Assembly (NCBI GenBank): GCA_965279595.1
Contig: OZ257246.1
Span: 779,767-811,766, forward strand
Source of the DNA: Sphingobacteriaceae bacterium
Lineage (GTDB): Bacteria; Bacteroidota; Bacteroidia; Sphingobacteriales; Sphingobacteriaceae
Reading direction: 5' to 3'
Length of the DNA: 32,000 nucleotides
The translations under genes and the position numbers were made by a program. The notes below the pieces were generated by a model. The model ran no database searches. It was not told the DNA's origin and worked only from the letters and a program-made list of their open reading frames with translations. How positions within the stretch are numbered: position 1 is the first letter of the stretch; every line of letters starts with the position of its first letter. Positions 1,586 through 27,079 of the stretch are shown one piece after another.

Positions 1586-3418
1586 TTATTTACCATTCAG
1601 TTGTTCTACAAAGTACATTTTCAACTGTCCTTTGTTTTTAGCTGTGAGCTCTCCTCGGTATTTGCATTCGAACTTTTGCCCAATCAAATCAAATGTTTTT
1701 TGAGAAATATTTATTCTTCCTGCTTCTGAATTTTGTTCCATTCTTGCAGCGGTATTTACAGTATCTCCCCAAATGTCATAGGCAAATTTCTTAACGCCTA
1801 CCACCCCAGCTACTAAAGGACCAGAATGAACACCTACTCGAATTTCAAAAAGTCCTCCATTCTTTTTCCTTTCTTTTGTAAATTCAATGATATCAAGGGC
1901 AGCGAGAATAGTTCTTTCTGCATGTTCGATTGTTGGATTCGGAACACCACATACTGCTAAATATGCATCTCCAATTGTTTTTATTTTTTCGAGTCCGTGC
2001 TTTTCTGCAATGGCATCAAAAGCTTTAAAGTATTGGTGAATTTCGGCTACTAAATCTTTAGGACTGAGACTTTCACTGATGCCAGTAAAATTCACAAAGT
2101 CAGTGAATAGCACAGATACTTCATCAAACTGTTGTGCATCAACCTCGCCTTTCAATTTTAATTCTTCTGCAACTTCTGATGGTAAAATATTTAACAACAA
2201 TTCATCACTTCTCTTTTTCGCTTTATTGATTTTATTTCTTTGTCTGAAAAACACAGCAGCAAATAATAACACAATTGCAAAGCCTCCAACAAATGTATTT
2301 CTAAGTAGTTTTTGTCTTTGCAATTCCTTGATACTTATTGCATCTTTTTTTTCTTGCTCTGCTTTTGCAGTGAACTCCTTTCTGTCAAATTCACTTTGGT
2401 ACTGATGGCGAATTGCTGATTTTTGATTCTCGATTTTTTTTACTCTTTCCACTGCAACTTTTTCAATTTCAAAATACTCTAAAGCCTTTCGGTAATTGCC
2501 TTTTCTTTGATAAATCAATCCTAAAAGATTAGCTGATTCACTTATATTTACAGGCATGTCAACTTCATTAGCAACTTGCATAGCAATGCTAGCATGTTCC
2601 AATGCTTCTTTAATTTTTCCTTGATCAAATTCAATCTTAGCTAGACCAATTAAGTTTACAACATAGCCTTTCTTATTTCCAATTTCTTGTGCCAATTCAA
2701 TGCCTTCTTCAAAATACTTTATTGCATTTATAAAATCTTTTCGCTTATAAAAAACATCACCTAATCCCTTTGTGACAATAGTAGTAATTTGATTTTTTAA
2801 GTTATGCTTTCTTGCAATTAAATAAGCTCTATGATAATATTCATATTGCTTCTCAACATTGTTCTTTTTTGAATAAATTACAGCAATGTTATTAAGTGTA
2901 GCAGTGAGGTCTTTGTGGTTTGTTGAATTGATTTGCATTGCCAGCGCTTTCTCATAGCTTCTGAGAGCCATATCAGTTTCACCAATACGATCATAAACCG
3001 CACCTGTGCTACTATATATTAAAGCAAGTCCAGTTAAATTATTTATCTCCCTATAAATTTTCTCACAAGCAGAATAATATTCAAAAGTTTTAACATAATC
3101 AGCCTGTTCTGCAGATTCGAATCCTTTATTGTTTAAATAAGTTCCATAATAAACAGTAGCGCAATGTACAATATCAGCCTGGCTGCTTTTCCTCAATTTT
3201 TGCGAAAGTATTCCCAATTGTTCATTGTATTTTTGCCATTCTCCATCAGCTGCATTATCTGAAAGGTCACTCAAAATTATCAGTTTGGAAGTGTCATCAG
3301 GTGTTGATTTTAAAACCTTGACTAATGAATCTATATAAGATTGTTCTTGCGCATGTAATACTGTGTTGCCAAAAAGAATTAGAAGGAAACTAATAATTGT
3401 GAATTTTATTTTCATCAT
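1586..3418 (-). CDS. Class III adenylate cyclase with signal peptide, periplasmic TPR array, coiled coil and a single TM helix
   Basis: The N-terminal signal peptide is MMKIKFTIISFLLILFGNTVLHAQ. It is followed by repeated TPR-like units (A..Y...G..Y....A...Y.KAL) and the TM helix FVGGFAIVLLFAAVFF. The C-terminal cyclase core reads VSVLFTDFVNFT ... KIKTIGDAYLAVCG ... VGVHSGPLVAGVVG ... YDIWGDTVNTAARME. The Lys (KTIGD) plus Asp (YDIWG) pair predicts ATP specificity. Confidence 0.9.
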   Translation of the reverse strand: MMKIKFTIISFLLILFGNTVLHAQEQSYIDSLVKVLKSTPDDTSKLIILSDLSDNAADGEWQKYNEQLGILSQKLRKSSQADIVHCATVYYGTYLNNKGFESAEQADYVKTFEYYSACEKIYREINNLTGLALIYSSTGAVYDRIGETDMALRSYEKALAMQINSTNHKDLTATLNNIAVIYSKKNNVEKQYEYYHRAYLIARKHNLKNQITTIVTKGLGDVFYKRKDFINAIKYFEEGIELAQEIGNKKGYVVNLIGLAKIEFDQGKIKEALEHASIAMQVANEVDMPVNISESANLLGLIYQRKGNYRKALEYFEIEKVAVERVKKIENQKSAIRHQYQSEFDRKEFTAKAEQEKKDAISIKELQRQKLLRNTFVGGFAIVLLFAAVFFRQRNKINKAKKRSDELLLNILPSEVAEELKLKGEVDAQQFDEVSVLFTDFVNFTGISESLSPKDLVAEIHQYFKAFDAIAEKHGLEKIKTIGDAYLAVCGVPNPTIEHAERTILAALDIIEFTKERKKNGGLFEIRVGVHSGPLVAGVVGVKKFAYDIWGDTVNTAARMEQNSEAGRINISQKTFDLIGQKFECKYRGELTAKNKGQLKMYFVEQLNGK

Positions 3419-3546: not shown

Positions 3547-4125
3547 CTAAGTCAGTTTATTTTTCACTGAATTCAGGTTTTGCATTTTCACTGGATTCCG
3601 GTATTGTTTTGAATAAGAAGTAAAAAACTGATGTGCTTCTAAAAAGCGTACTTGTAAATGATTCCACTGTTCTATGTTTTCAATCAATCCAAAAGTTTTT
3701 AATTCCAAATAAAGGTTATTACCAACTTTTTCAAAATCATTGCGACCCAAATAATCTAGATCAGCATCACAAATAATTTCTTCTAGTTTGTTTTGTGGTG
3801 TTTGAGGAATTCGAGTTGCCATTATCATTCCACAAATAATTTCAATTTCATTTTCAGAATAATCAAAGTTCGGTAATATTTCACGAGCCAATTCACAACT
3901 TTTTATTTCATGTTCAACTGATTGATAAATGAACCCAATATCATGCAACCATGCAGCGGTGATCAATAAATTTGTATCGCTTCGACTTGTATTTTCTTCA
4001 ACAGAAATTCTTTGCACGGCTTCAACTACATCTATAGTATGTTCAACGCTATGATATGTGAAGTCAGGAGAGAGTTCTGTTCTCAATTGGTTTAACATAA
4101 AGGTGGATAGTTGTTCTAGTTCCAT
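3547..4125 (-). CDS. HD-domain metal-dependent phosphohydrolase
   Basis: The 192-aa product contains YHSVEHTIDV ... AAWLHDIGF ... ICDADLDYLG, the H...HD...D pattern of the HD superfamily. Confidence 0.8.
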   Translation of the reverse strand: MELEQLSTFMLNQLRTELSPDFTYHSVEHTIDVVEAVQRISVEENTSRSDTNLLITAAWLHDIGFIYQSVEHEIKSCELAREILPNFDYSENEIEIICGMIMATRIPQTPQNKLEEIICDADLDYLGRNDFEKVGNNLYLELKTFGLIENIEQWNHLQVRFLEAHQFFTSYSKQYRNPVKMQNLNSVKNKLT

Positions 4126-4760
4126 TAGCTATTCAACAAATTTTGTGTTTATAAAATTGAATTGGATCAAAACTTCTGACACTAAAGAATCAGATTCGTT
4201 TTTTAAATTCCAAATTGAATTCGAAGAATCAAGATTACTTTGAAAAGAAATTGAAACTAGCAATTGCAAAAAGTACTTTAGAAGAATTGATTTTTTAAAA
4301 TTCATGAGATGAAAATTAAAGTATACAATAAATAAATCTAATATACTGCTTTTTTAGGCATTTCAGTTTCTTGAGACCAAATGTGTTGAGTTATGAATCC
4401 AAGAATGAATCATCGATTCAATTTCTAATTTAGTATGAATTAAGCTAGAAAATTGATTAGAATTCCTTCCAAATGCATAATTCAATTGCAATGATAGACT
4501 TAATGAGAAGAATTCACCAATTCTAAATGGTGTAATAAGTGCTTTTATAATTAAATTCCTTTCAGAATTTTAAATTATAATCTCCAAATATTAATCCATA
4601 TCGACCAAATTCACATTCAAATATTCAACAAAATTTTAAAGTAGTAATTTCAATTTATATATAAGGAGAACTCAGAGTCGCCCAAAAGGATGAAAGAAAT
4701 TACTAATTACAATTTTATTATGAAAGCAAAATTTTTATTCTAATGCTATTTATCTTTAAG

Positions 4761-4787
4761 GATTTTATCACTCCATGTGATAAAATC
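4761..4787. repeat. Perfect 11-bp inverted repeat (hairpin or palindromic site) in an ORF-free tract
   Basis: GATTTTATCAC (4761-4771), 5-nt spacer TCCAT, GTGATAAAATC (4777-4787). No flanking T-run on either strand. Confidence 0.6.
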
Positions 4788-5148
4788 TAGTAAAGATTGA
4801 ACCAAGTACAGTTAAACAATAACTGATAACGGCTGACAAAGTGGATCAAGATTTGCAATTTTAAATTGATGAATTTATTCCTGTTTGTTCCAAAAGATAT
4901 GTAAATGGGAACTTTGCAAATAACAAAGTCGGTATTAAAGTAAAAATTGACTCTACATCTATGACCTATAAAGAAACTTTAATATTGCGATTTACAAAAG
5001 AAATTTTTGATGCAATTTAGTAAACTGTTAAAACAAGCTTAAAAGTTGCTTTTCATTTAATTGAGAAGAAGCAAATAGGGCCTACTTGGTAGCAACCTTG
5101 AATAGTATTTTGATTTATGCGTCTGTTAAATTTTGACTGGCGCATAAA

Positions 5149-12704: not shown

Positions 12705-14636
12705 ATGAAAAAATTATTTACGCTCCTCTTATTCATTACTTCATTTCATTTTTCAAGTTTGGCACAAAGTCAGGCAGCATTAGATAGCATGGAACGTACA
12801 CTCAGCAGCAATGCCCATGATACTATCAAGCTAAAAACACTTGGTGATTTAAGTTGGATGTATGGCTTTAGCAATTTTGAAAAGTCATTGCAATTTGGAC
12901 AACAAGAGTTGGCTTTGGCGGAAAAGCTGAATGATAAAGCAAGTATCGCATTGGCATATAGTGATATTGGTATTGCTTATACCCGTATGAGTAAACTTGA
13001 TGAATCATTGCAAGCACACTTAAAATCATTGGCTATTAGGAATGAATTGGGATTGAAAGAAAAAGCAGCAGGTTCTTACTCCAACATTTCATTAATTTAT
13101 AAACAGCTTGGCAAATACAAAGAATCTACCGATTATATGTTACGTGCTTTGAAAGTATATGAAGAAGTGAAAGATGAAAAGAAACAAGCATTGGTATTGG
13201 GTAATTTATCGAATCTGATTTTGAATATGGACCAATTAGATTTGGCAGCAAGTTATATTCGCAAAGGAATTAAGTTGGCAGAAAAAACACAATCCTACCA
13301 AACGCTTGCCAATTTATATACAAGTTATAGCAGCTATTTTTATAAAACAAAAAAATACGATTCAGCTTTGGTATATAATAGTTATGCTATTGAAGTTTAT
13401 ACTGGATTGAATAATTATACTGACTTAGCAGGTTCGTTGAACTCGCGTGGACAAATAGAAATAGAGCTTAAAAAATATCCAATTGCGATGAAATCTTTTG
13501 CTGAATCATTAGACATTCGTAAAGCTTTGGGTGATGAATTAGGTATTGGTACGTGTCATAAAAATATCTGTTTCTGTTTAATGAAATTGAAAAGATTTGA
13601 TGAAGCAATGGCACATATTGATACTAGTATTGAAATTTTCAAACGTACTGAATCACGAAATTATTTAAAAGAAGCTTACCTTTTTGTAATGGATATCTAT
13701 CAAGATAAAAATGATTATAAAAATGCAATGCTCTATTATAAATACTCTGAAGAATTGGAAGATAGCATCATTAATACAGAAACTACCAACAAAATGAATG
13801 AGCTGCAAGTTCAATACGAAACAGAAAAAAAAGAGCAGCAAATAAAAATTCAATCGCTTGAGTTAAACAGAAAAAATATTTTCATTGGCGTAATTGTTGC
13901 CATACTAGCCTTAACAATTTTTATCGCAACTCTTATTTATAATAGACGCAAACTCAAACAAGATGCGAAACTACAAGCAGAAATAATTAAACAACAAGAC
14001 TTAGCATCACGCGGAATTATTGAAGCAGAAGAGAATGAAAGAAAAAGGATTGCAGGTGATTTACATGATGGTGTTGGGCAATTGTTTTCTGCAGTAAAAA
14101 TGAACCTTTCAAGTATTAGTGAACAAATTAAAATAGATGATCAAAAAGTAAAAACATTGTATGATAAAACCATTGACATGGTTGATGAATCATGCAAAGA
14201 AGTGCGAAGCATTTCACATAACATGATGCCGAATGTTTTATTAAAATCTGGCTTAAGTTCTGCAGTACGTGAATTCATTAGTAAAATTGATGCAGATAAA
14301 ATTAAAATCAATTTAGAAACTTTCGGATTAAATGATCGATTAGATTCAAATATTGAAACAGTTTTGTATCGTGTAATTCAAGAATCTGTTAACAATGTAA
14401 TTAAGCATGCTGATGCCAATCAATTAGATATTCAATTGAGCAAAGACCAGGAAGAAATTACAGTTACTATTGAAGACAATGGCAAAGGCTTTGATACTAA
14501 CAATCAAGATAATTTTGAAGGTATTGGTTTGAAGAACATCAAAACCAGAGTAGAGTTTTTAAAAGGTACAGTTGAGTGGGATTCAACTATTGATAGAGGA
14601 ACTGTTGTTTCTATACATATTCCAATTACAGCCTAA
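12705..14636 (+). CDS. TPR-sensor histidine kinase (signal peptide, TPR ectodomain, coiled coil, TM, HisKA_3 + HATPase_c)
   Basis: The signal peptide is MKKLFTLLLFITSFHFSSLAQ, followed by TPR-like units and the TM helix IFIGVIVAILALTIFIATLIY. The HisKA_3 H-box is ERKRIAGDLHDGVGQ, and the ATPase motifs are NNVIKHA ... DNGKGF ... GIGLKNI. Confidence 0.9.
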   Translation: MKKLFTLLLFITSFHFSSLAQSQAALDSMERTLSSNAHDTIKLKTLGDLSWMYGFSNFEKSLQFGQQELALAEKLNDKASIALAYSDIGIAYTRMSKLDESLQAHLKSLAIRNELGLKEKAAGSYSNISLIYKQLGKYKESTDYMLRALKVYEEVKDEKKQALVLGNLSNLILNMDQLDLAASYIRKGIKLAEKTQSYQTLANLYTSYSSYFYKTKKYDSALVYNSYAIEVYTGLNNYTDLAGSLNSRGQIEIELKKYPIAMKSFAESLDIRKALGDELGIGTCHKNICFCLMKLKRFDEAMAHIDTSIEIFKRTESRNYLKEAYLFVMDIYQDKNDYKNAMLYYKYSEELEDSIINTETTNKMNELQVQYETEKKEQQIKIQSLELNRKNIFIGVIVAILALTIFIATLIYNRRKLKQDAKLQAEIIKQQDLASRGIIEAEENERKRIAGDLHDGVGQLFSAVKMNLSSISEQIKIDDQKVKTLYDKTIDMVDESCKEVRSISHNMMPNVLLKSGLSSAVREFISKIDADKIKINLETFGLNDRLDSNIETVLYRVIQESVNNVIKHADANQLDIQLSKDQEEITVTIEDNGKGFDTNNQDNFEGIGLKNIKTRVEFLKGTVEWDSTIDRGTVVSIHIPITA

Positions 14637-14720: not shown

Positions 14721-16631
14721 ATGAAGTATTCCTTATCGCGATTTATATTCTATTTATTCAGTCTCCTTTTTTTTACGCAAACTACTTTTGCTGAAATTGA
14801 CCCTATTGCAGAAAAAAAAGTAACTCAATTATTAATTCAATCTTCACAAAACAGATCAGAATTGTTGAGGCCTGCCATAAATCAGGCATTAACTGCCTAT
14901 TCGTACGCTGAAAACATTTCAGATACTTCACAAATAAAATGTTGCATTGCCATTGCCAATCTCTACAATGACATAGGCAATTATGATTCGAGTTTGTATT
15001 TTTCTCAAATTGGAAAAACAGTAGCTAGTAAAATAAATTCAAAAAGTGATTTAGCTGCCATTTACAATGCCATGGGAGTTACTTATATCAATCAACTCAA
15101 ATTCAAACAAGCAATGCAACACTATTTTCTAGCATTGAAAATTTTTGATGAATTAAAAATGCCAATGAGATGTGCAGATGAATACAGCAATATTGCATAT
15201 GTACATTCTCAAATGGGCAATTTCAAAGAGTCAAGACGATTCCAAGAAAAAGCATTACATATTTATCAAGAAAATAAATACAAAAAAGGAGAAGCTCAAT
15301 CATATAATAATTTAGGAATTCTATTTGCTGAAAATGGAAGATTAAATGAAAGTTTATATTTTTTCAAGCTTTCTAAAAATATAAGAGAAAAAATAAATAG
15401 CAAAAGCGATTTGTGTTGGACTTACAATAACATAGGTGGTATTTATACCATGATTGAAAAATATGATTCGGGGTTATACTATTTGAATAAAGCAGCTGAA
15501 CAATTCAAACTAACAGGAAATACTAATGGAATGGCAGCAGCCTTAGGTAATATTGGCTCAGTGAATAAAGATTTGAAAAAATACAAAGAGGCAATTGTGT
15601 TTTTTCATCGTGGATTAAACGTTGCTAAAGAAAATAAATACTATGATTTAATTGAAAATACTTATGCGGGTTTAATTGATGTTTATAAATTAACCAATAA
15701 CTATAAAACTGCTTTACTTTATGCCGATTCATTAGTGGCTTTGAAAGACAGTATTTATGATAAGGAGAGCAGCAAGAAAATTGCAGAAATGCAAGCTTTA
15801 TACGAAACGGAAAAAGCAAGTAGCGAAAACAAATTATTAGCAAAAGAAAACACAATTCAGAAATTAGAAATTGGTAGAAGGAAAATCTATATCATAACAT
15901 TAATTGTTTTGTTTATACTCATTACCATTATATATATTTCTTATTACAATAGATATAAATTCAAAAAAGAAAGTCAGTTGAGTATGGCTTTGTTTAAGCA
16001 ACGTGAAGAATCTTCAAAAGAAATTATTAAAGCGGAAGAAAATGAAAGAAGAAGAATTGCAACTGATTTGCATGATGGATTAGGTCAATTGTTTTCAGCT
16101 GTAAAATTAAACCTATCCGGCATTAGTGATAATATTTCATTTAATGATAATAACCAAAAAGAAGTATTTGAAAAAACTTTGAGTTTGGTAGATGAATCAT
16201 GTAAAGAGATTAGAGAAATATCACACGCCATGATGCCGAATGTATTATTGAAATCTGGCCTAGCCTCTGCCATCAGAAATTTCATTCAAAAAATAGACCA
16301 CCAAAAATTAAAAGTAAACTTAGAAACAACTGGTTTAGATCAACGTTTAAACCCTGAAGTAGAAACTATTCTATATAGAGTAATTCAAGAGTGCATAAAC
16401 AATGTAATAAAACATTCAAAAGCTAATCAATTAGACATTCAATTAATAAAAGATGAAGATGGCATGAATGTTACCATTGAAGACAATGGTGTTGGGTTTG
16501 ATAAAAACACCATTCAATCAGAAGGATTAGGGTTGAAAAATATTTATTCTAGAATAAATTATTTAAACGGAACCGTTGAATGGGATTCAGCAGAAGGTAA
16601 GGGGACATTGGTAGCTATCTTCATTCCTTAA
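14721..16631 (+). CDS. TPR-sensor histidine kinase, tandem paralog of 12705..14636
   Basis: The architecture matches the upstream gene: signal peptide, TPR units, TM helix IYIITLIVLFILITIIYISYY, H-box ERRRIATDLHDGLGQ, and ATPase motifs NNVIKHS ... DNGVGF ... GLGLKNI. The kinase cores are highly similar by eye, while the ectodomains are divergent. Confidence 0.9.
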   Translation: MKYSLSRFIFYLFSLLFFTQTTFAEIDPIAEKKVTQLLIQSSQNRSELLRPAINQALTAYSYAENISDTSQIKCCIAIANLYNDIGNYDSSLYFSQIGKTVASKINSKSDLAAIYNAMGVTYINQLKFKQAMQHYFLALKIFDELKMPMRCADEYSNIAYVHSQMGNFKESRRFQEKALHIYQENKYKKGEAQSYNNLGILFAENGRLNESLYFFKLSKNIREKINSKSDLCWTYNNIGGIYTMIEKYDSGLYYLNKAAEQFKLTGNTNGMAAALGNIGSVNKDLKKYKEAIVFFHRGLNVAKENKYYDLIENTYAGLIDVYKLTNNYKTALLYADSLVALKDSIYDKESSKKIAEMQALYETEKASSENKLLAKENTIQKLEIGRRKIYIITLIVLFILITIIYISYYNRYKFKKESQLSMALFKQREESSKEIIKAEENERRRIATDLHDGLGQLFSAVKLNLSGISDNISFNDNNQKEVFEKTLSLVDESCKEIREISHAMMPNVLLKSGLASAIRNFIQKIDHQKLKVNLETTGLDQRLNPEVETILYRVIQECINNVIKHSKANQLDIQLIKDEDGMNVTIEDNGVGFDKNTIQSEGLGLKNIYSRINYLNGTVEWDSAEGKGTLVAIFIP

Positions 16632-19723: not shown

Positions 19724-21382
19724 ATGAAAAAGTTAATTTTTATTCTTTCTATTGTTTTAATCGGCTTTAATGCAAATTCACAAGGATTAACCATTAATTC
19801 CACTCAATTGAACTTTGCCAGCACTTTTGAAAATGCAGCCGATAGCCAGTTTATTTCTATTAAAAACAACACTGAAAGTAATATCGTTTTAAAGGAGTTT
19901 AGATTTTACGCTTTCTATAATAGCTATCCATTTTATGTTAAACAGGATACACTAAATATTCTTGCAAACGACTCTGCTGGATTTTATATTTATTTTAAAC
20001 CACTTCATAATGTATTACATAATGCAGAACTTTTTGTAATTACAGAACCATCTATTTATTCATTTTCAATTGATTTAAAAGGTCAGGGTAAATACAGTAA
20101 AACTTATTATAATTCAACAGAAAACAAATCAGAAGAGGATTTGAAAGCGTCCATTAAAACATTGGTTGCACAAGGATATGTTTCCTTAGGTTACAATACT
20201 GCACGTGATAAAATGTTCATGGAGATTGATAATAAATTTGTGAACGGTCAAGGTGCAGGTTCAAATACACTAGAATGTGTATATACAGGCAAATTGGCTT
20301 TTGGATATACAGATAGAACTTCTGCACAAACCAATTTTAACTTCAATACAGAGCACACTTTTCCTCAAGGGTTTTTTAGTCAGAATGAACCTATGCGTTC
20401 AGACTTACACCATTTATTTCCAACCAATGATGCGGCTAATAATAGTAGAAATAACTTTGCTTTTGGTGTAGCTACCTTACCATATCAAAATGATGCTACA
20501 AATACACCTTCACATTTAGGTTCTAATAGCATTTATGAACCAAGGGATACACAAAAAGGCAGAACCGCAAGAGCGATGATGTACTTTGTATTGCGATACC
20601 AGGATTATACAAACTTTTTTGCAACACAGGAATCTATTTTGCGTCAATGGAATGCTACATACCCCCCAAATGCTGTTGATATAGCTAGAAACAATGCCAT
20701 TCAATTGGTACAAAAAAATAGAAATCCATTTGTTGATTATCCTCAATTGGCAGATAGGATTCAGAAAATTGTTGGCACTTCAACTGCGCCTGTTATTAGA
20801 GGAAGTGATTATATTAAAACGATTACTACTTCAGAATTGATAGACACAAATTTGGTTTATCACTTTGAAATTCCTTATGTCAATACAGGAAATACAAGTT
20901 TAACCTTAACTAATTTTAAAAGCACTGACGCTGTTAGTCATTTGACATTAATTGCTGATACCATTCAATTAGCAGCTAATGAGGCTACCAAACTATCTAT
21001 AGATATTCAAACAACTGACACATCAGGATTAATAATTGATAGTATTTTATTTTTGAACAATGGGCAACCTGAATTTTTCATAATCAAGGCTAATATTAAA
21101 AAGACAATTACAATTGGATTTGATTCAAATATTCCCAATTCGGAGATTCAATTTTACCCAAATCCTGTTTTTAACCAAGCAATTATTCAATTAAAATCCA
21201 ATAATTATGTAAATGCGATTTTATTGATAGATGTATTAGGAAAAACGCATCGATTAAGTTTTGAAAAAATTGATTCAAAAAACTTGTTAATAGATTTATC
21301 TCCATTTCATTCTGGAATCTATTGGTTATCAATAAAATCTAACCAAAATACAATCCAAAATCTAAAAATTATTAAAAATTAA
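19724..21382 (+). CDS. Secreted endonuclease I family nuclease with N-terminal Ig-like domain and T9SS C-terminal sorting domain
   Basis: The endonuclease I core reads TEHTFPQGFF ... DLHHLFPTNDAANNSRNN ... RNPFVDYP. The C-terminal roughly 80 aa read FYPNPVFNQAIIQL...IDVLGK...SGIYWLSIKS...KIIKN, which matches the T9SS type A CTD pattern. Confidence 0.85.
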   Translation: MKKLIFILSIVLIGFNANSQGLTINSTQLNFASTFENAADSQFISIKNNTESNIVLKEFRFYAFYNSYPFYVKQDTLNILANDSAGFYIYFKPLHNVLHNAELFVITEPSIYSFSIDLKGQGKYSKTYYNSTENKSEEDLKASIKTLVAQGYVSLGYNTARDKMFMEIDNKFVNGQGAGSNTLECVYTGKLAFGYTDRTSAQTNFNFNTEHTFPQGFFSQNEPMRSDLHHLFPTNDAANNSRNNFAFGVATLPYQNDATNTPSHLGSNSIYEPRDTQKGRTARAMMYFVLRYQDYTNFFATQESILRQWNATYPPNAVDIARNNAIQLVQKNRNPFVDYPQLADRIQKIVGTSTAPVIRGSDYIKTITTSELIDTNLVYHFEIPYVNTGNTSLTLTNFKSTDAVSHLTLIADTIQLAANEATKLSIDIQTTDTSGLIIDSILFLNNGQPEFFIIKANIKKTITIGFDSNIPNSEIQFYPNPVFNQAIIQLKSNNYVNAILLIDVLGKTHRLSFEKIDSKNLLIDLSPFHSGIYWLSIKSNQNTIQNLKIIKN

Positions 21383-21569: not shown

Positions 21570-23402
21570 ATGTTGAGGACGAGTAAAAAACACAACAGAA
21601 AAAAAATTCTTGCAATTCTTGCACTTGCGTTTTTTATGTTAAATAATGCTGGGGTAAGTTTGGCCCAATCAAATAATAATAACGAGAACCCTTATTCAAA
21701 AGAAAATTACTCAGATGCAAAAAAATTGCAACGTGTGGTTTATAATATTATTCAACCATATTTAAAAGGAACAAATTTTTTAGTTGATGTAAAAATTAAA
21801 AAACAGTCATTTGAAGTTGATTCAGCAGGTGTTCAAATAACTGATGTTGATACAGGTATGGCGGTTGATTATTTACCAGGTGTAGCTGATGGCTCCAATG
21901 TTGTAATAAATGATAATGGAGTTTACGCGCCTTTTAATATTGGCAATGGTAAAACAAAAACAGTAGTTATAGTAATGGACACCTGCTATGATTCCAATGC
22001 ATTGGCTTTTATTGACAATTTAGTTAGAAGTACAATTCCATTTGATGCTGCCAACGGTGATAGATTATTGGTACAATCGCAGGTCTTTCCTGCTTCACCA
22101 AATTCATTTCCACCAGTTCAAAAGCCAGTACCTAACGTTGCTTCACTAAGTCCATTCCCTATTCAACAGCAACCTTCTATACAACAAACATTTCCTCAAG
22201 TAACCAAAAATGAAACACCACCTGAAAGTGGTTCATTAAACATGGCAGCTTTGATTCCATACTTGATCATAATTTTGTTGTTCATGCTTTTTGCTTTTGT
22301 TATTTTATATCTTTTGTTAAGACCCAAAAAGAAAAAGCAAAATGAAGAGCTACAATCGATACATCAAAAAATTGAACAATTAGAAAATGCTGCTAGAGCA
22401 CCGATATTAATTCAACATGATGACAACTTAGATAATTATGCAAAGTTGGCGGATATGCGTTCATATGTTACTAAAGAATTTATTAGCAATAAAAATAAAG
22501 TTGCAGATTTATTCAATGAGTGGGTGGAAGTAGATGAAAGTGCTGGTCTTCAAAAAATAGTTAACATTTTAAAAGCTACCAATCCTAAATTATTACCTTT
22601 TTTAAATTCTCATTTATCAAAAGACAATTACCATTATGTTGAAATTTCATTAGATGATAATCCACCATTGGTTCCTGAAGAGCAGCTAAAACATATTGAA
22701 CAATTTAAAAAAGAAATATCCACTTTTAATACAGCACCAAAAACAAAAGAACGAGATATCTTTCATTTCTTAAATCAATTAAATGAACAACAAATCATGT
22801 ATTTGATTAAAGAAGAAAGTGAAGAGTTAGCTGCCATTGTATTGGCTCAATTGAACCCTAAAAGATGTATGAGTATTATCAAAAATTTTGACAGTACTAA
22901 ACAATCAATCATTCTACAAAAAATGAGCAGCATCAATGATTTGTCGGTTGCTGTATATAAAGAAATTGCTTCTTATTTTTCTGCGAAAGCTATGTCAATG
23001 AATGATATGAAATATGTGAGTTTGGATGGATTGAAAACTATTATCAGTTTATTAGATACATTACCTACAACTGAACAGAAAAAATACATTGATGATTTAG
23101 CGGGATATGATTTAGATCTCGCAAGAAAAATTAAAGAGCGCTTCATTACTTTCGAAGAAATACAAGATCAAGATGATTACTTTTTGCAACGTGCATTAGA
23201 AGATGTTGATTCAGGTACCATTGCCAAAGCATTGATCAATGCAAATGAAACAACAGTTAATAAATTAATTAGTCTTCGTCCGAAGAGAGAACAATTATTA
23301 ATTAAATCAGAAATTGATTACAATAAAGATTTATTAATAGAAGAAATTGAGAAAGCTAGAAAAGTCATATTAGATAAATTGAAATTGAACTTAGTTGCAT
23401 GA
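21570..23402 (+). CDS. Bitopic membrane protein with a periplasmic RBM-like N-domain, P/Q-rich linker, TM helix and cytoplasmic FliG-like (middle + C-terminal) domain
   Basis: Signal/anchor helix at aa 12-33. Periplasmic domain at aa ~45-170. P/Q-rich linker at aa ~173-222. TM helix MAALIPYLIIILLFMLFAFVILYLLL followed by RPKKKK (positive-inside). The cytoplasmic region aa ~397-608 reads LIKEESEELAAIVLAQLNPKR... GLKTIISLLDTL... LARKIKERFITFEEIQDQDDYFLQRALEDVDSGTIAKALINA...SLRPKREQLLIKSEID...IEKARKVIL. This runs parallel to the FliG_M and FliG_C signatures (EHPQ-helix region, MFxFE..LDD..iQr.LreVD...la.ALKga, torque helix). Confidence 0.7.
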   Translation: MLRTSKKHNRKKILAILALAFFMLNNAGVSLAQSNNNNENPYSKENYSDAKKLQRVVYNIIQPYLKGTNFLVDVKIKKQSFEVDSAGVQITDVDTGMAVDYLPGVADGSNVVINDNGVYAPFNIGNGKTKTVVIVMDTCYDSNALAFIDNLVRSTIPFDAANGDRLLVQSQVFPASPNSFPPVQKPVPNVASLSPFPIQQQPSIQQTFPQVTKNETPPESGSLNMAALIPYLIIILLFMLFAFVILYLLLRPKKKKQNEELQSIHQKIEQLENAARAPILIQHDDNLDNYAKLADMRSYVTKEFISNKNKVADLFNEWVEVDESAGLQKIVNILKATNPKLLPFLNSHLSKDNYHYVEISLDDNPPLVPEEQLKHIEQFKKEISTFNTAPKTKERDIFHFLNQLNEQQIMYLIKEESEELAAIVLAQLNPKRCMSIIKNFDSTKQSIILQKMSSINDLSVAVYKEIASYFSAKAMSMNDMKYVSLDGLKTIISLLDTLPTTEQKKYIDDLAGYDLDLARKIKERFITFEEIQDQDDYFLQRALEDVDSGTIAKALINANETTVNKLISLRPKREQLLIKSEIDYNKDLLIEEIEKARKVILDKLKLNLVA

Positions 23403-24460
23403 AAATAACAAAACACCTATTTGTATTTATTTTTACATTAGTTGCTTTAAATGCTGCAGCTCAAAAAAAATATGACCGTGAATCAAAGCTGACTGAGTTT
23501 AACGATTTATTGATTAGTGTATCCGCCAGCATCAATGATATTCCATTTGCAGCTAGACGAGTAGCTTTATTTGATATTACTTCTCGCTCTGACAATCCTG
23601 TTATTATTAGTCAAAAACAATTGCGTTTACAATTTGAAGATGTTTTGAAAAAGAAAGCGTTTACAGTTGTATCTGTTCCGGAATTTGAACGAAAAATGAT
23701 CATGAAAATCAATGGTAATGATTCATTGATAAAAATTGATAACCAAAGTGCCATTAGCAATTTTCGTCAACAGCCTGAAAGCTTAGCAGAGCTTTGCAGA
23801 AAATACGGTATTCAAAGTTTGATTGATTGCAATTTGTTTTTTGATAGTGTGAATGGATTTGTCATGAATATTCGATTTGTAAATGCATCAACAAGAGAAG
23901 TGCTTTGGAATGAAACGCTATATTCAAGAGTAAAAGAATCTACTTTTAAAGTTCGTAAACGAATTAATTTTGGAGCTGGGTTAACAGTGATAAACTCTTT
24001 CCAAGAAAATACAACTGTTTATTCATCAAATACAATTACTACTTCTTTCTTAGCTGAATATACCTATGACCAAAATATGTCTGCTGATAATACAGCATTT
24101 TTTGGATTGTTCGCACGTTTAAATTATTACAACTTGCGATTAGCCACAAGTGCAGTCAGTGAAAATAATAAACTAGGGAGCGCCTTTTTCCCAGGAGTAG
24201 GTATTCGTGGTTCAAAATTATTTTATAAAAAGAAACAAACTCAAGGTTACTGGTTTGAATATCAATTAGGCGGTGGAGTTACTATTTACAATAAATTGTT
24301 TGGTCAAGTTAACCAAGCAATGAACATAAGTTTAACAAAGAATTTCGGAATTGGAATGATGATGGAGTATAACTTAATTGCTCCGAAGTATTCTAAAGGT
24401 GTTACTTCTGTTTCATTTAATAATATTAATTATGCGTTTTCCCTTGCTTATAAATTCTAA
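23399..24460 (+). CDS. Outer-membrane beta-barrel protein with a CsgG/LpoB/FlgO-like periplasmic N-domain (tentative)
   Basis: The signal peptide is MKITKHLFVFIFTLVALNAAAQ. The N-domain reads RRVALFDITSRS ... LAELCRKYGIQSLIDCNLFFDSVNGFVMNIRFVNASTREVLWNETL. The C-terminal half has alternating aromatic/hydrophobic beta-strand patterning and ends in ...NYAFSLAYKF (terminal Phe, an OMP signature). An ATGA overlap joins it to the upstream gene. Confidence 0.6.
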   Translation: MKITKHLFVFIFTLVALNAAAQKKYDRESKLTEFNDLLISVSASINDIPFAARRVALFDITSRSDNPVIISQKQLRLQFEDVLKKKAFTVVSVPEFERKMIMKINGNDSLIKIDNQSAISNFRQQPESLAELCRKYGIQSLIDCNLFFDSVNGFVMNIRFVNASTREVLWNETLYSRVKESTFKVRKRINFGAGLTVINSFQENTTVYSSNTITTSFLAEYTYDQNMSADNTAFFGLFARLNYYNLRLATSAVSENNKLGSAFFPGVGIRGSKLFYKKKQTQGYWFEYQLGGGVTIYNKLFGQVNQAMNISLTKNFGIGMMMEYNLIAPKYSKGVTSVSFNNINYAFSLAYKF

Positions 24461-24998
24461 ACAAACAAAACTGTTTAGACTTTGCAATGTTGCAATTGTT
24501 GGCTTAAGTTTTCTGTTGTTAAATGGAGTTGAACTTCATGCTCAAAGTCCATTTCAAAAAGTTGACACTACGAAAGGTCGAGTAAAAATTAAATATAAAA
24601 ACCAAAATACTTCTATTGATTTGGTACTTGACCCAAACGATCAAGAATTTAATTTAGAATTTAATGGTAGAGATTTAGTAAGCAGTTTAATTATTGTTGA
24701 CAGTACAAAAAAAAGCGGCAAAGATGTAAATTCCTTAACAAGTGCGGAGAATAGCAAGATGCTTCGATTTTATCGTTTATCACAAGATGAATATTATAAA
24801 AAAGCATATGATAGAGCATTATCCTATGTTGATAGCTCTTTATATATTGCAGAAACATCAGAAGCATTGGGTCTGAAAGGAAGTATATTTTTTACAAAGG
24901 GAGAAATTGATCGTGCAAAAAGAAATTGGGAAATGGCGAAGAAAATTGATCCGAATTTTAAAACCCCAGTTATATATCAAAAAAATAGTCGCCAATGA
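24432..24998 (+). CDS. Small secreted TPR-repeat protein
   Basis: I prefer the ATG at 24432 over the ORF-track start at 24378. It gives a normal signal peptide (MRFPLLINSKQTKLFRLCNVAIVGLSFLLLNGVELHAQS), whereas the longer start overlaps the previous gene by 83 nt. The C-terminus is TPR-like: YYKKAYDRALSYVD...ALGLKGSIFFTKGEIDRAKRNWEMAKKIDPNF. Confidence 0.65.
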   Translation: MRFPLLINSKQTKLFRLCNVAIVGLSFLLLNGVELHAQSPFQKVDTTKGRVKIKYKNQNTSIDLVLDPNDQEFNLEFNGRDLVSSLIIVDSTKKSGKDVNSLTSAENSKMLRFYRLSQDEYYKKAYDRALSYVDSSLYIAETSEALGLKGSIFFTKGEIDRAKRNWEMAKKIDPNFKTPVIYQKNSRQ

Positions 24999-25825
24999 GA
25001 TTTTCAATTATAAGTTTGTTTCTTGTTTTGTTTTCCTTAGGATTATTGGCCTTAGGTATTTGTGATGTTATTGGCATTGTACACATAAAAAAAGCATTAC
25101 CTTTTTTATACGTCAACCGATTTTTAGATTTACCTAGTTTCTTAATAGTTGCAGGTGGAACTTTGAGTAATGCATTTATAATATACCCTCCACATTTATT
25201 AGCAACATCTTTTAGTAAATTATTTTTATTGTTCAGTCAGTCAAAAGATAACCAAAAACAATTAGAAAAAGATATTGATTCAGTTGTGTCATGGGCAAAT
25301 GAATATAAAACAAACCGAATTGAATTTCTTAGAACAATTCAAGATAGACAAACACATGATTTCTCAGCATATTTATTTTCATTAGTTAGCACTAATTATT
25401 CAATTGATGAAGTAAAAATTATTGGAGAAGCTAGTATCAACGAGCATCATAATAAATATTTAAAAATTGCTGATGTATTTAAAAACATGGGTAACTCTGG
25501 ACCAGCATTTGGTATGTTCGGAACTTTGTTTGGTTTAGTTTATATGCTTAGTAGTTTAGATGACCCTTCTAAAATTGGACCTGGTTTAGCAACAGGTTTA
25601 TTAGTTACACTTTATGGAGTTTCTATGACTCACTTGCTATTTTTCCCAATGTCGAAAAAAATATTGCTTAATGCAGAATATAATTTAATAAGAGAAGAAA
25701 TGTTATTAGAGGGAATTGAATTAATTGCTGACAATAAATCTCCGCTTTTTATTAAAGATAAATTACAGACCTATTTAGATCGAGCTTATACTATGAAGCA
25801 ATTGAAGAACGAGAATAAAAAGTAA
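24995..25825 (+). CDS. MotA/PomA-type stator proton (ion) channel subunit (MotA/TolQ/ExbB superfamily)
   Basis: The profile shows four TM helices with a roughly 100-aa cytoplasmic loop between TM2 and TM3. Motifs are FLDLPSFLIVAGGTL (MotA TM2 motif), GPAFGMFGTLFGLVYML (TM3 with Pro) and GLLVTLYGVSMTHLLFFPMSKKI (TM4 with Pro). An ATGA overlap joins it to the upstream gene. Confidence 0.85.
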   Translation: MRFSIISLFLVLFSLGLLALGICDVIGIVHIKKALPFLYVNRFLDLPSFLIVAGGTLSNAFIIYPPHLLATSFSKLFLLFSQSKDNQKQLEKDIDSVVSWANEYKTNRIEFLRTIQDRQTHDFSAYLFSLVSTNYSIDEVKIIGEASINEHHNKYLKIADVFKNMGNSGPAFGMFGTLFGLVYMLSSLDDPSKIGPGLATGLLVTLYGVSMTHLLFFPMSKKILLNAEYNLIREEMLLEGIELIADNKSPLFIKDKLQTYLDRAYTMKQLKNENKK

Positions 25826-25829
25826 TTCG

Positions 25830-26486
25830 ATGTCGAGAAATATAAAACATCGATCAGAAGAACATGAAGAAAATTGGTTGATCACGTATGCAGATACCAT
25901 CACTAATTTACTTGCGTTTTTTATATTGATAGTTTCGATGTCAAGAATTGATCAAAACATTTGGGCTGAAGTAAGTAAGGGCTTGAAATCAAAATTAAAT
26001 CAGAAAGAAGTTAAGACCAGTTTAAATACAGTGAAAGATCGCTTGGATTCTCTTTTAAAAAAAGAAGAACAAGCTGGTTTGATTGATGTGAAAATGGATC
26101 AAGATGGTATTAAAATGAATATCTTGAGCAGAGGTGTTTATAATTCAGGTGAAGCAGAATTGTTGGATGAGGGCAAGGGAATAGTTGACCGCGTAATTAA
26201 TGCAATAAATTCTACTAAAAGCAATACTTTTAAAATAGATGTAGAAGGACATACTGATGATGTGCCTATCAAAAATGATTTCTATAAATCAAATTGGGAA
26301 CTTTCAACTTCACGTGCTTCAAATGCTATCCAATATTTAATAGATAAAGGAATAAGTCCTGATAGATTAAAAGCTTCTGGTTATGGCGATACCAAGCCAC
26401 TATTCCCTAACAAAGATGTTAAGGGCAATCCTATTGATAAAAACAGAGCATTCAATAGAAGGGTTGTAGTTCGTATATATTACTAA
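25830..26486 (+). CDS. MotB-type stator subunit (TM with conserved Asp + OmpA-like peptidoglycan-binding domain)
   Basis: The N-terminus reads EENWLITYADTITNLLAFFILIV, the MotB channel helix with its critical Asp in the YAD context. The C-terminal OmpA_C-like part reads VEGHTDDVPI...SNWELSTSRASNAIQYL...LKASGYGDTKPL...NRAFNRRVVVRI. There is a 4-nt gap after the MotA-like gene. Confidence 0.88.
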   Translation: MSRNIKHRSEEHEENWLITYADTITNLLAFFILIVSMSRIDQNIWAEVSKGLKSKLNQKEVKTSLNTVKDRLDSLLKKEEQAGLIDVKMDQDGIKMNILSRGVYNSGEAELLDEGKGIVDRVINAINSTKSNTFKIDVEGHTDDVPIKNDFYKSNWELSTSRASNAIQYLIDKGISPDRLKASGYGDTKPLFPNKDVKGNPIDKNRAFNRRVVVRIYY

Positions 26487-26487
26487 A

Positions 26488-26841
26488 ATGAATCTGGAAA
26501 TAATTCGTGAGTATTGCCTTGCAAAAAAAGCAGTGGAAGAAGGATTACCTTTTGGTGAAGATGTTCTGGTTTTCAAAGTAATGGGGAAAATATTTCTATT
26601 GACTTCTTTGGATAACCCTATTAGCATTAACTTAAAATGCGAACCTGATTATGCAATTGAACTAAGAGAAAAATATGAAGAAGTAATCCCAGGATTTCAC
26701 ATGAATAAAAAAATGTGGAATACTGTTAGTATAAATGGAAGTCTTCATCAAAAATTTATTTTAGATTTAATTGATCATTCATATAACCAAGTTGTATTGG
26801 GATTTTCAAAAAAAATGAAAGAAGAATTAAACTCAATTTAA
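26488..26841 (+). CDS. MmcQ/YjbR family protein
   Basis: The 117-aa product reads IREYCLAKKAVEEGLPFGEDVLVFKVMGKIFLL...LKCEP..A.ELREKY..VIPGFHMNKKMWNTV, the typical YjbR pattern. The start lies 1 nt after the MotB-like stop. Confidence 0.75.
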   Translation: MNLEIIREYCLAKKAVEEGLPFGEDVLVFKVMGKIFLLTSLDNPISINLKCEPDYAIELREKYEEVIPGFHMNKKMWNTVSINGSLHQKFILDLIDHSYNQVVLGFSKKMKEELNSI

Positions 26842-26842
26842 T

Positions 26843-27079
26843 ATGTGGACAGAAGAAAATAATTGCTTGTCAAAAAAATTTCTATTTGATGGCTTTGTTG
26901 AAGCTATGAAATTCATCAACAAGGTTGCAACTGTTGCTGAAAGTTTAAATCATCACCCAACTATTATCAATACATATAATAAAGTAGAGTTGATTTTACA
27001 AACGCATGATAAAGGAAATACAGTAACAGAACTAGATTGGCAGCTAGCAAAAGAAATTGATCGAATAAATGAAATTTGA
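26843..27079 (+). CDS. 4a-hydroxytetrahydrobiopterin dehydratase (pterin-4-alpha-carbinolamine dehydratase)
   Basis: The 78-aa product reads F.F..FVEAMKFINKVATVAESLNHHPTIINTYNKVELILQTHD...T..D..LAKEID, with the conserved HHP motif. Confidence 0.85.
   Translation: MWTEENNCLSKKFLFDGFVEAMKFINKVATVAESLNHHPTIINTYNKVELILQTHDKGNTVTELDWQLAKEIDRINEI

Follow-up and report, generated by a model that had tools for sequence, protein, structure and literature searches.

A five-gene locus encoding rotor and stator homologs

The stretch of DNA analysed here (32,000 nucleotides of contig OZ257246.1 from a Sphingobacteriaceae bacterium, hereafter the window, with a GC content of ~30%) carries at positions 21570-26486 five co-directional + strand genes, which an earlier note made from the sequence alone had read as an operon combining a FliG-like rotor protein with a MotA/MotB stator. 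Calling the five products P1 to P5, we found that they constitute a maintained, autonomous gene module built from the rotor-stator core of the flagellum. The listing of open reading frames (ORFs) agrees with the coordinates claimed in the earlier note, giving frames of 610 aa (21570-23402), 353 aa (23399-24460), 276 aa (24995-25825) and 218 aa (25830-26486) for genes 1, 2, 4 and 5, and for gene 3 a frame with a mechanical TTG start at 24378 and a stop at 24998, in which the ATG at 24432 yields a protein of 188 aa. Both ATGA overlaps (23399-23402 and 24995-24998) and a gap of 4 nt (25826-25829) fit these coordinates as well, while a 29-nt overlap of genes 2 and 3 (24432-24460), also described there, holds in the window if ATG 24432 is the start and is not conserved in relatives, where gene 3 starts 7-13 nt past the gene 2 stop.

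P1, a natural fusion of FliF and FliG parts

Gene 1 (21570-23402, +) encodes a protein with an N-terminal signal sequence and one strong transmembrane (TM) segment, as judged from hydropathy. The Pfam models FliG_M (PF14841, 37.6 bits against a cutoff of 25) and FliG_C (PF01706, 63.2 against 23.3) match its residues 393-604, and both exceed their cutoffs in all 48 members of the P1 family examined. In agreement with these matches, P1 aligns with the middle and C-terminal domains of T. maritima FliG at E 5e-18 (phmmer), and the family profile aligns with residues 113-315 of E. coli FliG with 99% probability (hhalign, E 6e-18). The FliG_N model is recovered in one family member (P0031, residues 314-404, 30.8 bits over a cutoff of 25), just upstream of FliG_M. 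P1 nevertheless differs from the soluble FliG of ~330 aa encoded among flagellar genes, being a membrane protein of 610 aa, and its score with the equivalog-level model TIGR00207 (83.9 bits) lies under the cutoff of 226.7.

We modelled P1 with AlphaFold using a 48-sequence alignment, which gave a mean predicted local distance difference test (pLDDT) score of 80.8, against 52.8 for an earlier 6-sequence model. In the model, a signal helix is followed by a periplasmic domain, a disordered linker, the TM helix, a helical domain and the middle and C-terminal domains of FliG. The signal sequence covers residues 1-32 (21570-21665; hydropathy, helix 5-31 in the model), with cleavage predicted between SLA and QS. 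Residues 44-173 (21699-22088) form a ring-building-motif (RBM) domain that Pfam family hits, hhalign and Foldseek indicate to be homologous to FliF RBM3, and residues 174-224 (22089-22241) a Pro/Ser/Gln-rich linker predicted to be disordered from its composition and a pLDDT <50. The single TM helix at residues 225-250 (22242-22319; hydropathy, model) takes the position of FliF TM2. On the cytoplasmic side, a helical domain at residues 285-390 (22422-22739; pLDDT 94-97, Foldseek) stands in the position of FliG_N, followed by the FliG middle domain at 400-480 (22767-23009; Pfam, alignments) and the FliG C-terminal domain at 487-609 (23028-23396; pLDDT 96-98, C-domain root-mean-square deviation 1.2-1.5 Å), all on the + strand.

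Searching the Protein Data Bank (PDB) with this model using Foldseek returned full-length FliG in the top 13 places (E down to 7e-10, 302-321 aligned columns), followed at probability 1.00 by structures of the FliF MS-ring and the RBM3 S-ring, and then by EscJ, a ring protein of the injectisome, and by co-folded FliF-C:FliG-N complexes, of which 5tdy and 5wuj are weakly matched. The periplasmic domain has the topology alpha-beta-insert-beta-alpha-beta, with a core pLDDT of ~90-96 and an insert at residues 79-127 that bears an L-P-G motif near-invariant across the family. FliF RBM3 is likewise interrupted between its first two strands, by the beta-collar seen in published MS-ring structures, and the insert of P1 is shorter. 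A YscJ_FliF search suggested in the earlier note turned out positive at the family level: YscJ_FliF_C (PF08345) matches 21 of the 48 members (best E 7.1e-08), and hhalign aligns the family profile with E. coli FliF residues 396-432 (93.7% probability, E 2e-07), which are the last helix and strand ahead of the second TM helix of FliF, pointing to a FliF-derived periplasmic domain. None of the 48 members matches PF01514, the YscJ/FliF N-terminal region bearing RBM1 and RBM2, and the periplasmic part comprises only ~130 residues.

Because the Pfam, hhalign and Foldseek evidence converges, P1 is a natural fusion in which the last ring-building domain of FliF and its TM helix are joined to what appears to be an essentially complete FliG, which goes beyond the earlier view of a membrane-anchored FliG-like protein with a periplasmic domain. 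At the FliM-binding site, the T. maritima motif 'sEHPQt' aligns to 'eESEe' in P1, so that EESE replaces EHPQ, and across the family the first Glu (E416) alone is near-invariant.

We also considered that P1 might carry a generic MgtE_N-like helical repeat, as in a non-mechanical system reusing such domains. MgtE_N is indeed weakly matched in 39 of the 48 members, but FliG_M and FliG_C outscore it in every one of them and the fold search gives FliG rather than MgtE, and this identity was rejected.

A stator pair of the flagellar PomAB type

Gene 4 (24995-25825, +) encodes P4 (276 aa), a PomA/MotA-type stator A subunit, and gene 5 (25830-26486, +) encodes P5 (218 aa), a MotB-type B subunit; both assignments, already made in the earlier note, are borne out by Pfam matches of P4 to MotA_ExbB (58.8 bits) and of P5 to MotB_plug (56.8 bits, with the plug at residues 7-55) and OmpA (63.4 bits, with a peptidoglycan-binding domain at residues 104-196). 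Among NCBIfam models, P4 scores 108-122 bits with PRK09109, MotP and PomA, and its best score (122.4 bits) is below the equivalog cutoff of 237. Residues 40-264 match solved PomA/MotA structures in the PDB at E ~1e-25. P5 matches flagellar MotB/MotD models at 1.7e-43 (149 bits, against an equivalog cutoff of 283).

We compared the P4 and P5 orthologs of eleven loci in an alignment that also included a PomA fragment and the MotA and MotB of E. coli. In this alignment, the TM Asp22 of P5 (25893-25895, +; E. coli D32) is invariant within 'WLxxYAD', the plug and OmpA motifs are intact and both MotA prolines (E. coli P173 and P222) are conserved in the P4 orthologs, whose cytoplasmic domain has the length of PomA, the E. 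coli-type insertion being absent. Taken together, these sequence features indicate a stator of the flagellar PomAB type rather than of the Tol/Exb type. A study of MotAB evolution treats a PomA-type torque domain, a plug and an OmpA-type anchor as hallmarks of flagellar stators (the 'FIT' clade) and lists no Bacteroidota as bearing them (PMC12505986).

In the TM3-TM4 region of P4 (25385-25669), the Thr of 'FGTLFG' corresponds to T158 of PomA and to an Ala in E. coli MotA; in PomA this position is linked to the use of Na+.

The predicted rotor-stator interface

In the torque-helix region of P1 (residues 565-584; 23262-23321, +), K565, R573 and E581 align with K264, R281 and D289 of E. coli FliG; K565 is conserved and R573 near-invariant across the family. 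According to PMC7564593, flagellar torque involves the pairs MotA R90 with FliG D289 and MotA E98 with FliG R281. Comparing paired P1 and P4 sequences from 24 loci, we found that the MotA loop of P4 (residues 99-123; nt 25289-25363) co-varies with the torque helix of P1. In the low-GC Bacteroidota subgroup, P4 carries an invariant N107-R108 and R or N at position 113, which aligns with PomA E96, and P1 is acidic at position 574 (E) and at the D289 equivalent 581 (E/D). In the GC-rich subgroup, positions 107-108 are E/D followed by G, position 113 is acidic (D/E), position 574 is M and position 581 is G, S or A, so that an acidic D289 equivalent is confined to the low-GC subgroup. Such a charge pattern is suggestive of a co-evolving interface.

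Two envelope proteins accompany the rotor and stator genes

Gene 2 (23399-24460, +) encodes P2 (353 aa), with a signal peptide, a conserved alpha/beta periplasmic domain of ~150 residues (~23-175) and a C-terminal half rich in alternating-hydrophobic strands, the C-terminal residue being aromatic in all 13 orthologs but one. On account of its signal peptide, strand pattern and conserved C-terminal aromatic residue, P2 is a putative small beta-barrel anchor of the outer membrane (OM). Searches of Pfam, NCBIfam, PADLOC and PDB sequences gave no match to it, and its profile finds nothing in the PDB at E up to 10 or in Pfam at E up to 1; P2 is found in the same position at every locus long enough to show it.

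Gene 3 (24432-24998, +) encodes P3 (188 aa), an exported protein with a short conserved beta motif at its N terminus and a pair of tetratricopeptide repeats (TPRs) at its C terminus. That it is a secreted TPR protein, as the earlier note had it, is supported by its signal peptide and by TPR_2 matches in 13 of 13 orthologs, the window P3 itself staying below the cutoff. Because most lineages carry a lipobox Cys, P3 is generally a lipoprotein. Neither P2 nor P3 has detectable homology to flagellar stator-scaffold families. The cleavage sites predicted in P1 (SLA before QS, 21660-21670), P2 (AAA before QK, 23460-23470) and P3 (LHA before QS, 24500-24545) all leave an N-terminal Gln, which is typical of exported Bacteroidota proteins (the Bacteroidetes Q-rule).

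In part of the GC-rich subgroup, P3 is extended at its C terminus by ~200 residues in which Ala, Pro and Lys abound (L005 3097-4371; L023 10932-12188; L024 10830-12098), an extension that the other lineages do not have. An apparent P2-P3 fusion of 540 aa (L020 726-2348) proved to be an assembly artefact, the XXXX at its junction corresponding to a run of N.

The module is widespread and under purifying selection

To reach the family, we used an exhaustive profile search against 1.84 billion representative proteins, since word-indexed protein searches returned the same 29 proteins each time and divergent members were reached only in this way. The P1 family comprises at least 143 clusters (50% identity) at E<1e-30, most of them with proteins of 580-680 aa that are matched end to end, and thus the membrane-anchored architecture defines a large family. 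In databases, its members appear as 'FliG C-terminal domain-containing protein' or under the wrong names FliG, MotE or FliL.

In close relatives (~72% identity, freshwater metagenome-assembled genomes (MAGs)), the five genes are again flanked by the same two peptidase genes, M13 and M14. Scanning GTDB species genomes gave 16 loci, all in MAGs, labelled Sphingobacteriales, Sphingobacteriaceae, Sphingobacteriia, Flavobacteriales, Flavobacteriaceae, Bacteroidia, Bacteroidota bacterium or uncultured bacterium, and a metagenome scan seeded with a divergent subgroup gave 15 loci of 58-70% GC; a scan of viral contigs did not find the module. The order P1-P2-P3-P4-P5 on one strand is present at every locus long enough to show it, with P1 identities from 100% down to 27% and including Bacteroidota MAG loci at 27-34%. 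The arrangement thus extends well beyond this genome, and because it recurs in ~30 independent loci it is not due to chance. For the least saturated pair, with unsaturated dS, the dN/dS ratio omega is 0.036-0.095 on all five genes, showing that all of them are under purifying selection.

One Bacteroidota subtype has a sixth gene (~505 aa, DUF5723) directly after motB on the same strand (L016 12897-14426; L017 5865-7397; L018 12831-14357; L019 13116-14528; L020 3907-5439; L021 11368-12879). DUF5723 has been modelled as a 16-stranded OM barrel (bioRxiv 10.1101/2025.01.03.631275), which suggests a six-component variant with a second OM protein. Two Flavobacteriales MAGs contain two paralogous copies of the module each (L014 and L016 in CAZKOM01, L015 and L017 in CANGWH01), one copy of each pair being of the five-gene type and the other of the DUF5723 type. 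The seventh and eighth genes downstream in L016-L020 were rejected as module members, as they are housekeeping genes (AIR synthase-like, AspRS).

No further flagellar structural or export genes found around the module

The window contains no other flagellar gene, as the earlier note had stated, according to a Pfam scan of 20 flanking ORFs (a 78-aa ORF and 18 of the 21 that measure at least 110 aa) and to a comparison of E. coli flagellar proteins with all window ORFs. We extended the latter to related loci, using as queries 43 proteins of flagella and chemotaxis from E. coli and covering every ORF in the window and in 36 loci (469 kb, 37 sources). Across these 469 kb the screen revealed no further structural or export gene of a flagellum, and in particular no FliM/N, FlhA/B, FliPQR, rod, hook or filament gene; the loss of the EHPQ motif from P1 fits the absence of FliM and FliN. 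Matches consisted of the FliG, MotA and MotB of the module, two weak FlgJ-type hydrolases, generic response regulators and one chemotaxis cluster. The latter, cheR-cheB-cheW-MCP (L024 13608-17722, -), lies directly downstream of the module and convergent to it on a GC-rich contig; its closest relative, L023, does not have it. The cluster could be there by chance, or reflect chemosensory control or a flagellated host.

GTDB Bacteroidota include some flagellated classes; to our knowledge, the named carrier groups (Sphingobacteriales, Flavobacteriales and others) are non-flagellated. A survey describes Bacteroidota as being without filament, C-ring and MS/P/L-ring proteins, and reports flagellar-gene remnants in other non-motile bacteria; it also remarks, without an explanation, that rotor proteins in non-motile genomes 'could have an alternative function' (PMC12199754).

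Genes surrounding the module in the window

The flanking ORFs encode, according to Pfam, sensor kinases, a TPR-cyclase, peptidases, methyltransferases and similar proteins. The earlier note had also mentioned hallmarks of the type IX secretion system (T9SS) and of gliding: an endonuclease upstream of the module does carry a T9SS C-terminal sorting domain, which indicates a Bacteroidota-type host, while gliding genes were not seen in the window, and no link of the module to T9SS or gliding was found. This Endonuclease I gene (19724-21382, +) lies between the M13 peptidase gene and the module and is absent from that place in relatives L001-L004, indicating a lineage-specific insertion beside the upstream region of the operon. 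On the other side, a YjbR-family gene begins 1 nt past the motB stop and is followed by a gene for pterin-4a-carbinolamine dehydratase (PCD; the 78-aa ORF above), together spanning 26488-27079 (+). Both are missing between motB and the M14 peptidase gene in relatives, and they are probably co-transcribed passengers rather than module members.

Further upstream, tandem paralogous sensor kinases (12705-14636 and 14721-16631, +) each consist of TPR repeats followed by HisKA_3 and HATPase_c domains. The gene for a 610-aa protein in which TPR repeats are combined with the catalytic domain of an adenylate/guanylate cyclase (1586-3418, -) has as neighbours a gene for a tandem universal stress protein (585-1457) and an HD-domain gene (3547-4125). 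Between the latter and a LytTR response regulator gene lie ~0.85 kb at ~27% GC (4306-5148), with no ORF of at least 60 aa and no Rfam match. A scan for sigma-70 promoters and terminators performed as on shuffled sequence, the model used not representing Bacteroidota promoters.

A possible rotor-stator machine without a flagellum

Based on these results, we propose that the module encodes a conserved rotor-stator machine working without a flagellum, in which a P1 ring is driven by PomAB-type stators and P2 and P3 provide a tether to the OM, a reading to which we assign a probability of nearly 60%. In this model, P1 would be exported via its cleavable signal peptide and become a single-pass inner-membrane protein, with a FliF-RBM3-type domain on a Pro/Gln-rich tether on its periplasmic side and a complete FliG on its cytoplasmic side. 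It would oligomerise into a ring equivalent to a stripped-down MS-ring fused 1:1 to a FliG ring, as in engineered FliF-FliG fusions. P4 and P5 would form 5:2 stator units of the PomAB/MotAB type anchored to peptidoglycan through P5; ion flow through the conserved Asp would turn the P4 pentamer, which would push the torque helix of P1 via the charged interface. Because FliM and FliN are absent and the FliM-binding motif is lost, such a motor is expected to have no direction switch. P3, as an OM-tethered TPR protein, and P2, as a putative OM-anchored one, would link the machine to the outer membrane, either positioning the stators and the ring, in the manner of the MotX or PflA/PflB scaffolds, or receiving the mechanical output. 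The more specific picture of a free-standing ion-driven rotary motor, in which a FliF-FliG ring lacking any secretion apparatus, rod, hook or filament is spun by PomAB-type stators and coupled to OM proteins, is put forward tentatively, the odds being somewhat against it.

The module shares with the flagellar motor core an RBM3-type domain, a TM helix, a helical domain in the place of FliG_N, the M and C domains of FliG, a torque helix with R281 and K264 equivalents, a PomA-type A subunit with a cytoplasmic domain of four-helix length, and a B subunit with the Asp, the plug and the OmpA-type domain. It differs in that FliF and FliG parts form one polypeptide, which lacks RBM1 and RBM2 and contains a long Pro/Gln-rich tether. 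The N-terminal hydrophobic helix of P1 is probably a cleaved signal peptide, unlike the first TM helix of FliF. In addition, FliM/FliN and the EHPQ motif are lacking, no export apparatus, rod, hook, filament or P/L rings were found near the module, and its linkage to a pair of non-flagellar envelope proteins is constant. FliF is also covalently joined to FliG in the full-frame fusions engineered in Salmonella and Vibrio, but these are laboratory constructs that contain full-length FliF and operate inside a complete flagellum, whereas P1 is natural, retains only the last FliF domain and has no flagellum. PDB entry 8z4d is such a FliF-FliG fusion chain, as identified by PDB sequence matches, and PMC6079021 reports that an engineered fusion assembles rings.

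Several points weigh against the proposed machine. The P1 ring and its rotation are argued from homology, and the rotor would have no rod, export gate or filament to turn. The disordered linker of ~50 residues between the RBM domain and the TM helix is much longer than expected for FliF, would transmit torque poorly and resembles the spacers of TonB and TolA. In the window protein, FliG_N stays at 23.9 bits (cutoff 25) and is placed on the M region, and YscJ_FliF_C at 11.1 bits (cutoff 23.8). At the interface, the D288 equivalent of P1 is Ser and the R297 equivalent variable, the P4 equivalents of PomA R88/E96 (E. coli R90/E98) are partly conserved and vary by subgroup, and the charge covariation reflects essentially one phylogenetic split. 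The fold and OM location of P2 are likewise deduced from its sequence. Moreover, the flagellar screen is limited to the window and ~437 kb of related loci, and given the L024 chemotaxis cluster some carriers may be flagellated.

The linker also lies at the heart of the strongest alternative, which we consider unlikely, namely that P1 is a linear force transducer like TonB or TolA rather than a ring component. One or few P1 molecules would dock by FliG_C on the spinning MotA pentamer and be dragged or wound around, so that the tethered periplasmic domain is pulled and acts on P2 and P3 at the OM, as in Ton and Tol energisation. The Pro/Ser/Gln-rich spacer, the candidate OM protein P2 with its conserved periplasmic domain, and the combination of an inner-membrane motor, an inner-membrane-anchored protein spanning the periplasm, an OM protein and a TPR protein would all suit such a mechanism. 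The parallel gene set is that of Tol-Pal with CpoB: Tol-Pal and ExbBD-TonB likewise unite an inner-membrane ion motor of the 5:2 type, a periplasm-spanning protein with a Pro-rich spacer and OM partner(s), and an operon TPR protein (CpoB/YbgF). In the module, however, the stator is of the flagellar type with plug and OmpA domain rather than Exb/Tol, and coupling would occur via a cytoplasmic FliG domain and not via a TM helix placed within the motor. Foldseek finds the closest structures to the periplasmic domain, a ring-building motif, in 33-34-mer FliF rings, and FliG is itself ring-forming. Homology to TonB_C, TolA or TolB was not found in any of the five proteins (Pfam, NCBIfam). The module does not match the Tol-Pal/Ton systems: P4 reaches 12.4 bits with TolQ, and P1-P3 have no TonB_C, TolA, TolB or Pal family matches.

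The GldLM/PorLM motors belong to the same phylum and are, as proposed for the module, ion-driven 5:2 motors with an output reaching the OM. No GldL, GldM or Por family match was obtained among the five proteins (Pfam, NCBIfam), and no gld, spr or por gene is linked in any locus inspected. As to P2 and P3, periplasmic TPR-type and OM-anchored proteins position MotB-type stators around the rotor in Vibrio and Campylobacterota; a role comparable to that of MotX/MotY and FlgO/P/T (Vibrio) or PflA/PflB and FlgP (Campylobacterota) would be by analogy only.

It is improbable that the module is an unlinked part of a genuine flagellum, supplying it with an accessory motor ring or with alternative stator and rotor parts. 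The scope of the screen, the cheR, cheB, cheW and MCP genes downstream of the module in L024 and the flagellated classes among GTDB Bacteroidota would allow for it. On the other hand, the labelled carrier MAGs belong to groups known as non-flagellated, in agreement with the survey (PMC12199754), and the 469 kb screened hold no FliM/N, FlhA/B, FliPQR, rod, hook or filament gene. P1 has lost the FliM-binding motif, its FliF part lacks the RBM1 and RBM2 that house the flagellar export gate, and it invariably has the non-flagellar P2 and P3 as linked partners.

A Zorya-like anti-phage defence, or a non-mechanical system reusing MotAB-like or helical-repeat domains, is very improbable. Zorya does contain a MotAB-related membrane motor outside the flagellum, and P5 matches ZorB models at E 3e-19 (PADLOC). 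Yet P5 scores far better with flagellar MotB/MotD, P4 has no ZorA match and P1-P3 no defence-family match in PADLOC, nuclease, helicase or ZorC/D/E-type effectors are lacking, and Zorya itself has no FliG. The module further occupies a conserved housekeeping synteny in the core genome rather than a variable island, and was not found on viral contigs. A Zorya identity was therefore rejected, ZorA with its long cytoplasmic tail and the effectors not having been found and the similarity to ZorB being generic.

Least probable of all is the earlier suggestion of a relic, in which motor genes left over from a lost flagellum drift to loss: although flagellar-type parts do occur here in a lineage without flagella, and remnants elsewhere in non-motile bacteria (PMC12199754), it is contradicted by the low omega on all five genes, the intact functional residues, an order and composition kept with two non-flagellar partners from 100% to 27% P1 identity and across very different GC contents, and the paralogous copies in single MAGs, and the derived fusion architecture with its dedicated partners P2 and P3 points to a maintained function.

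Implications

In full-text searches of literature that is not subscription-only, we found no description of a FliF-FliG fusion or of a non-flagellar FliG-MotAB module, the remark on rotor proteins in non-motile genomes (PMC12199754) coming closest. All parts of the module come from known families, and its presumed principle is that of the flagellar motor. FliG and FliF are regarded as flagellum-specific, and here a widespread, selected module pairs their fusion with a flagellar-type stator in bacteria of groups known as non-flagellated. If the proposed machine exists, it would be a new member among the 5:2 ion-motor machines, alongside the flagellum, Ton, Tol, Agl-Glt, GldLM and Zorya, and would offer a minimal rotor-stator pair for experiments, with one rotor gene and two stator genes, making testable the long-standing question of what a flagellar rotor and stator could do without export apparatus and filament. 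A free-standing motor, if true, would power an envelope or surface process in non-flagellated Bacteroidota and other lineages and, depending on how its FliG and MotA branch relative to flagellar ones, would be either a flagellar motor that has been radically repurposed or a living example of a pre-flagellar rotor-stator module. The module may also reveal a new envelope or motility function in abundant freshwater Bacteroidota.

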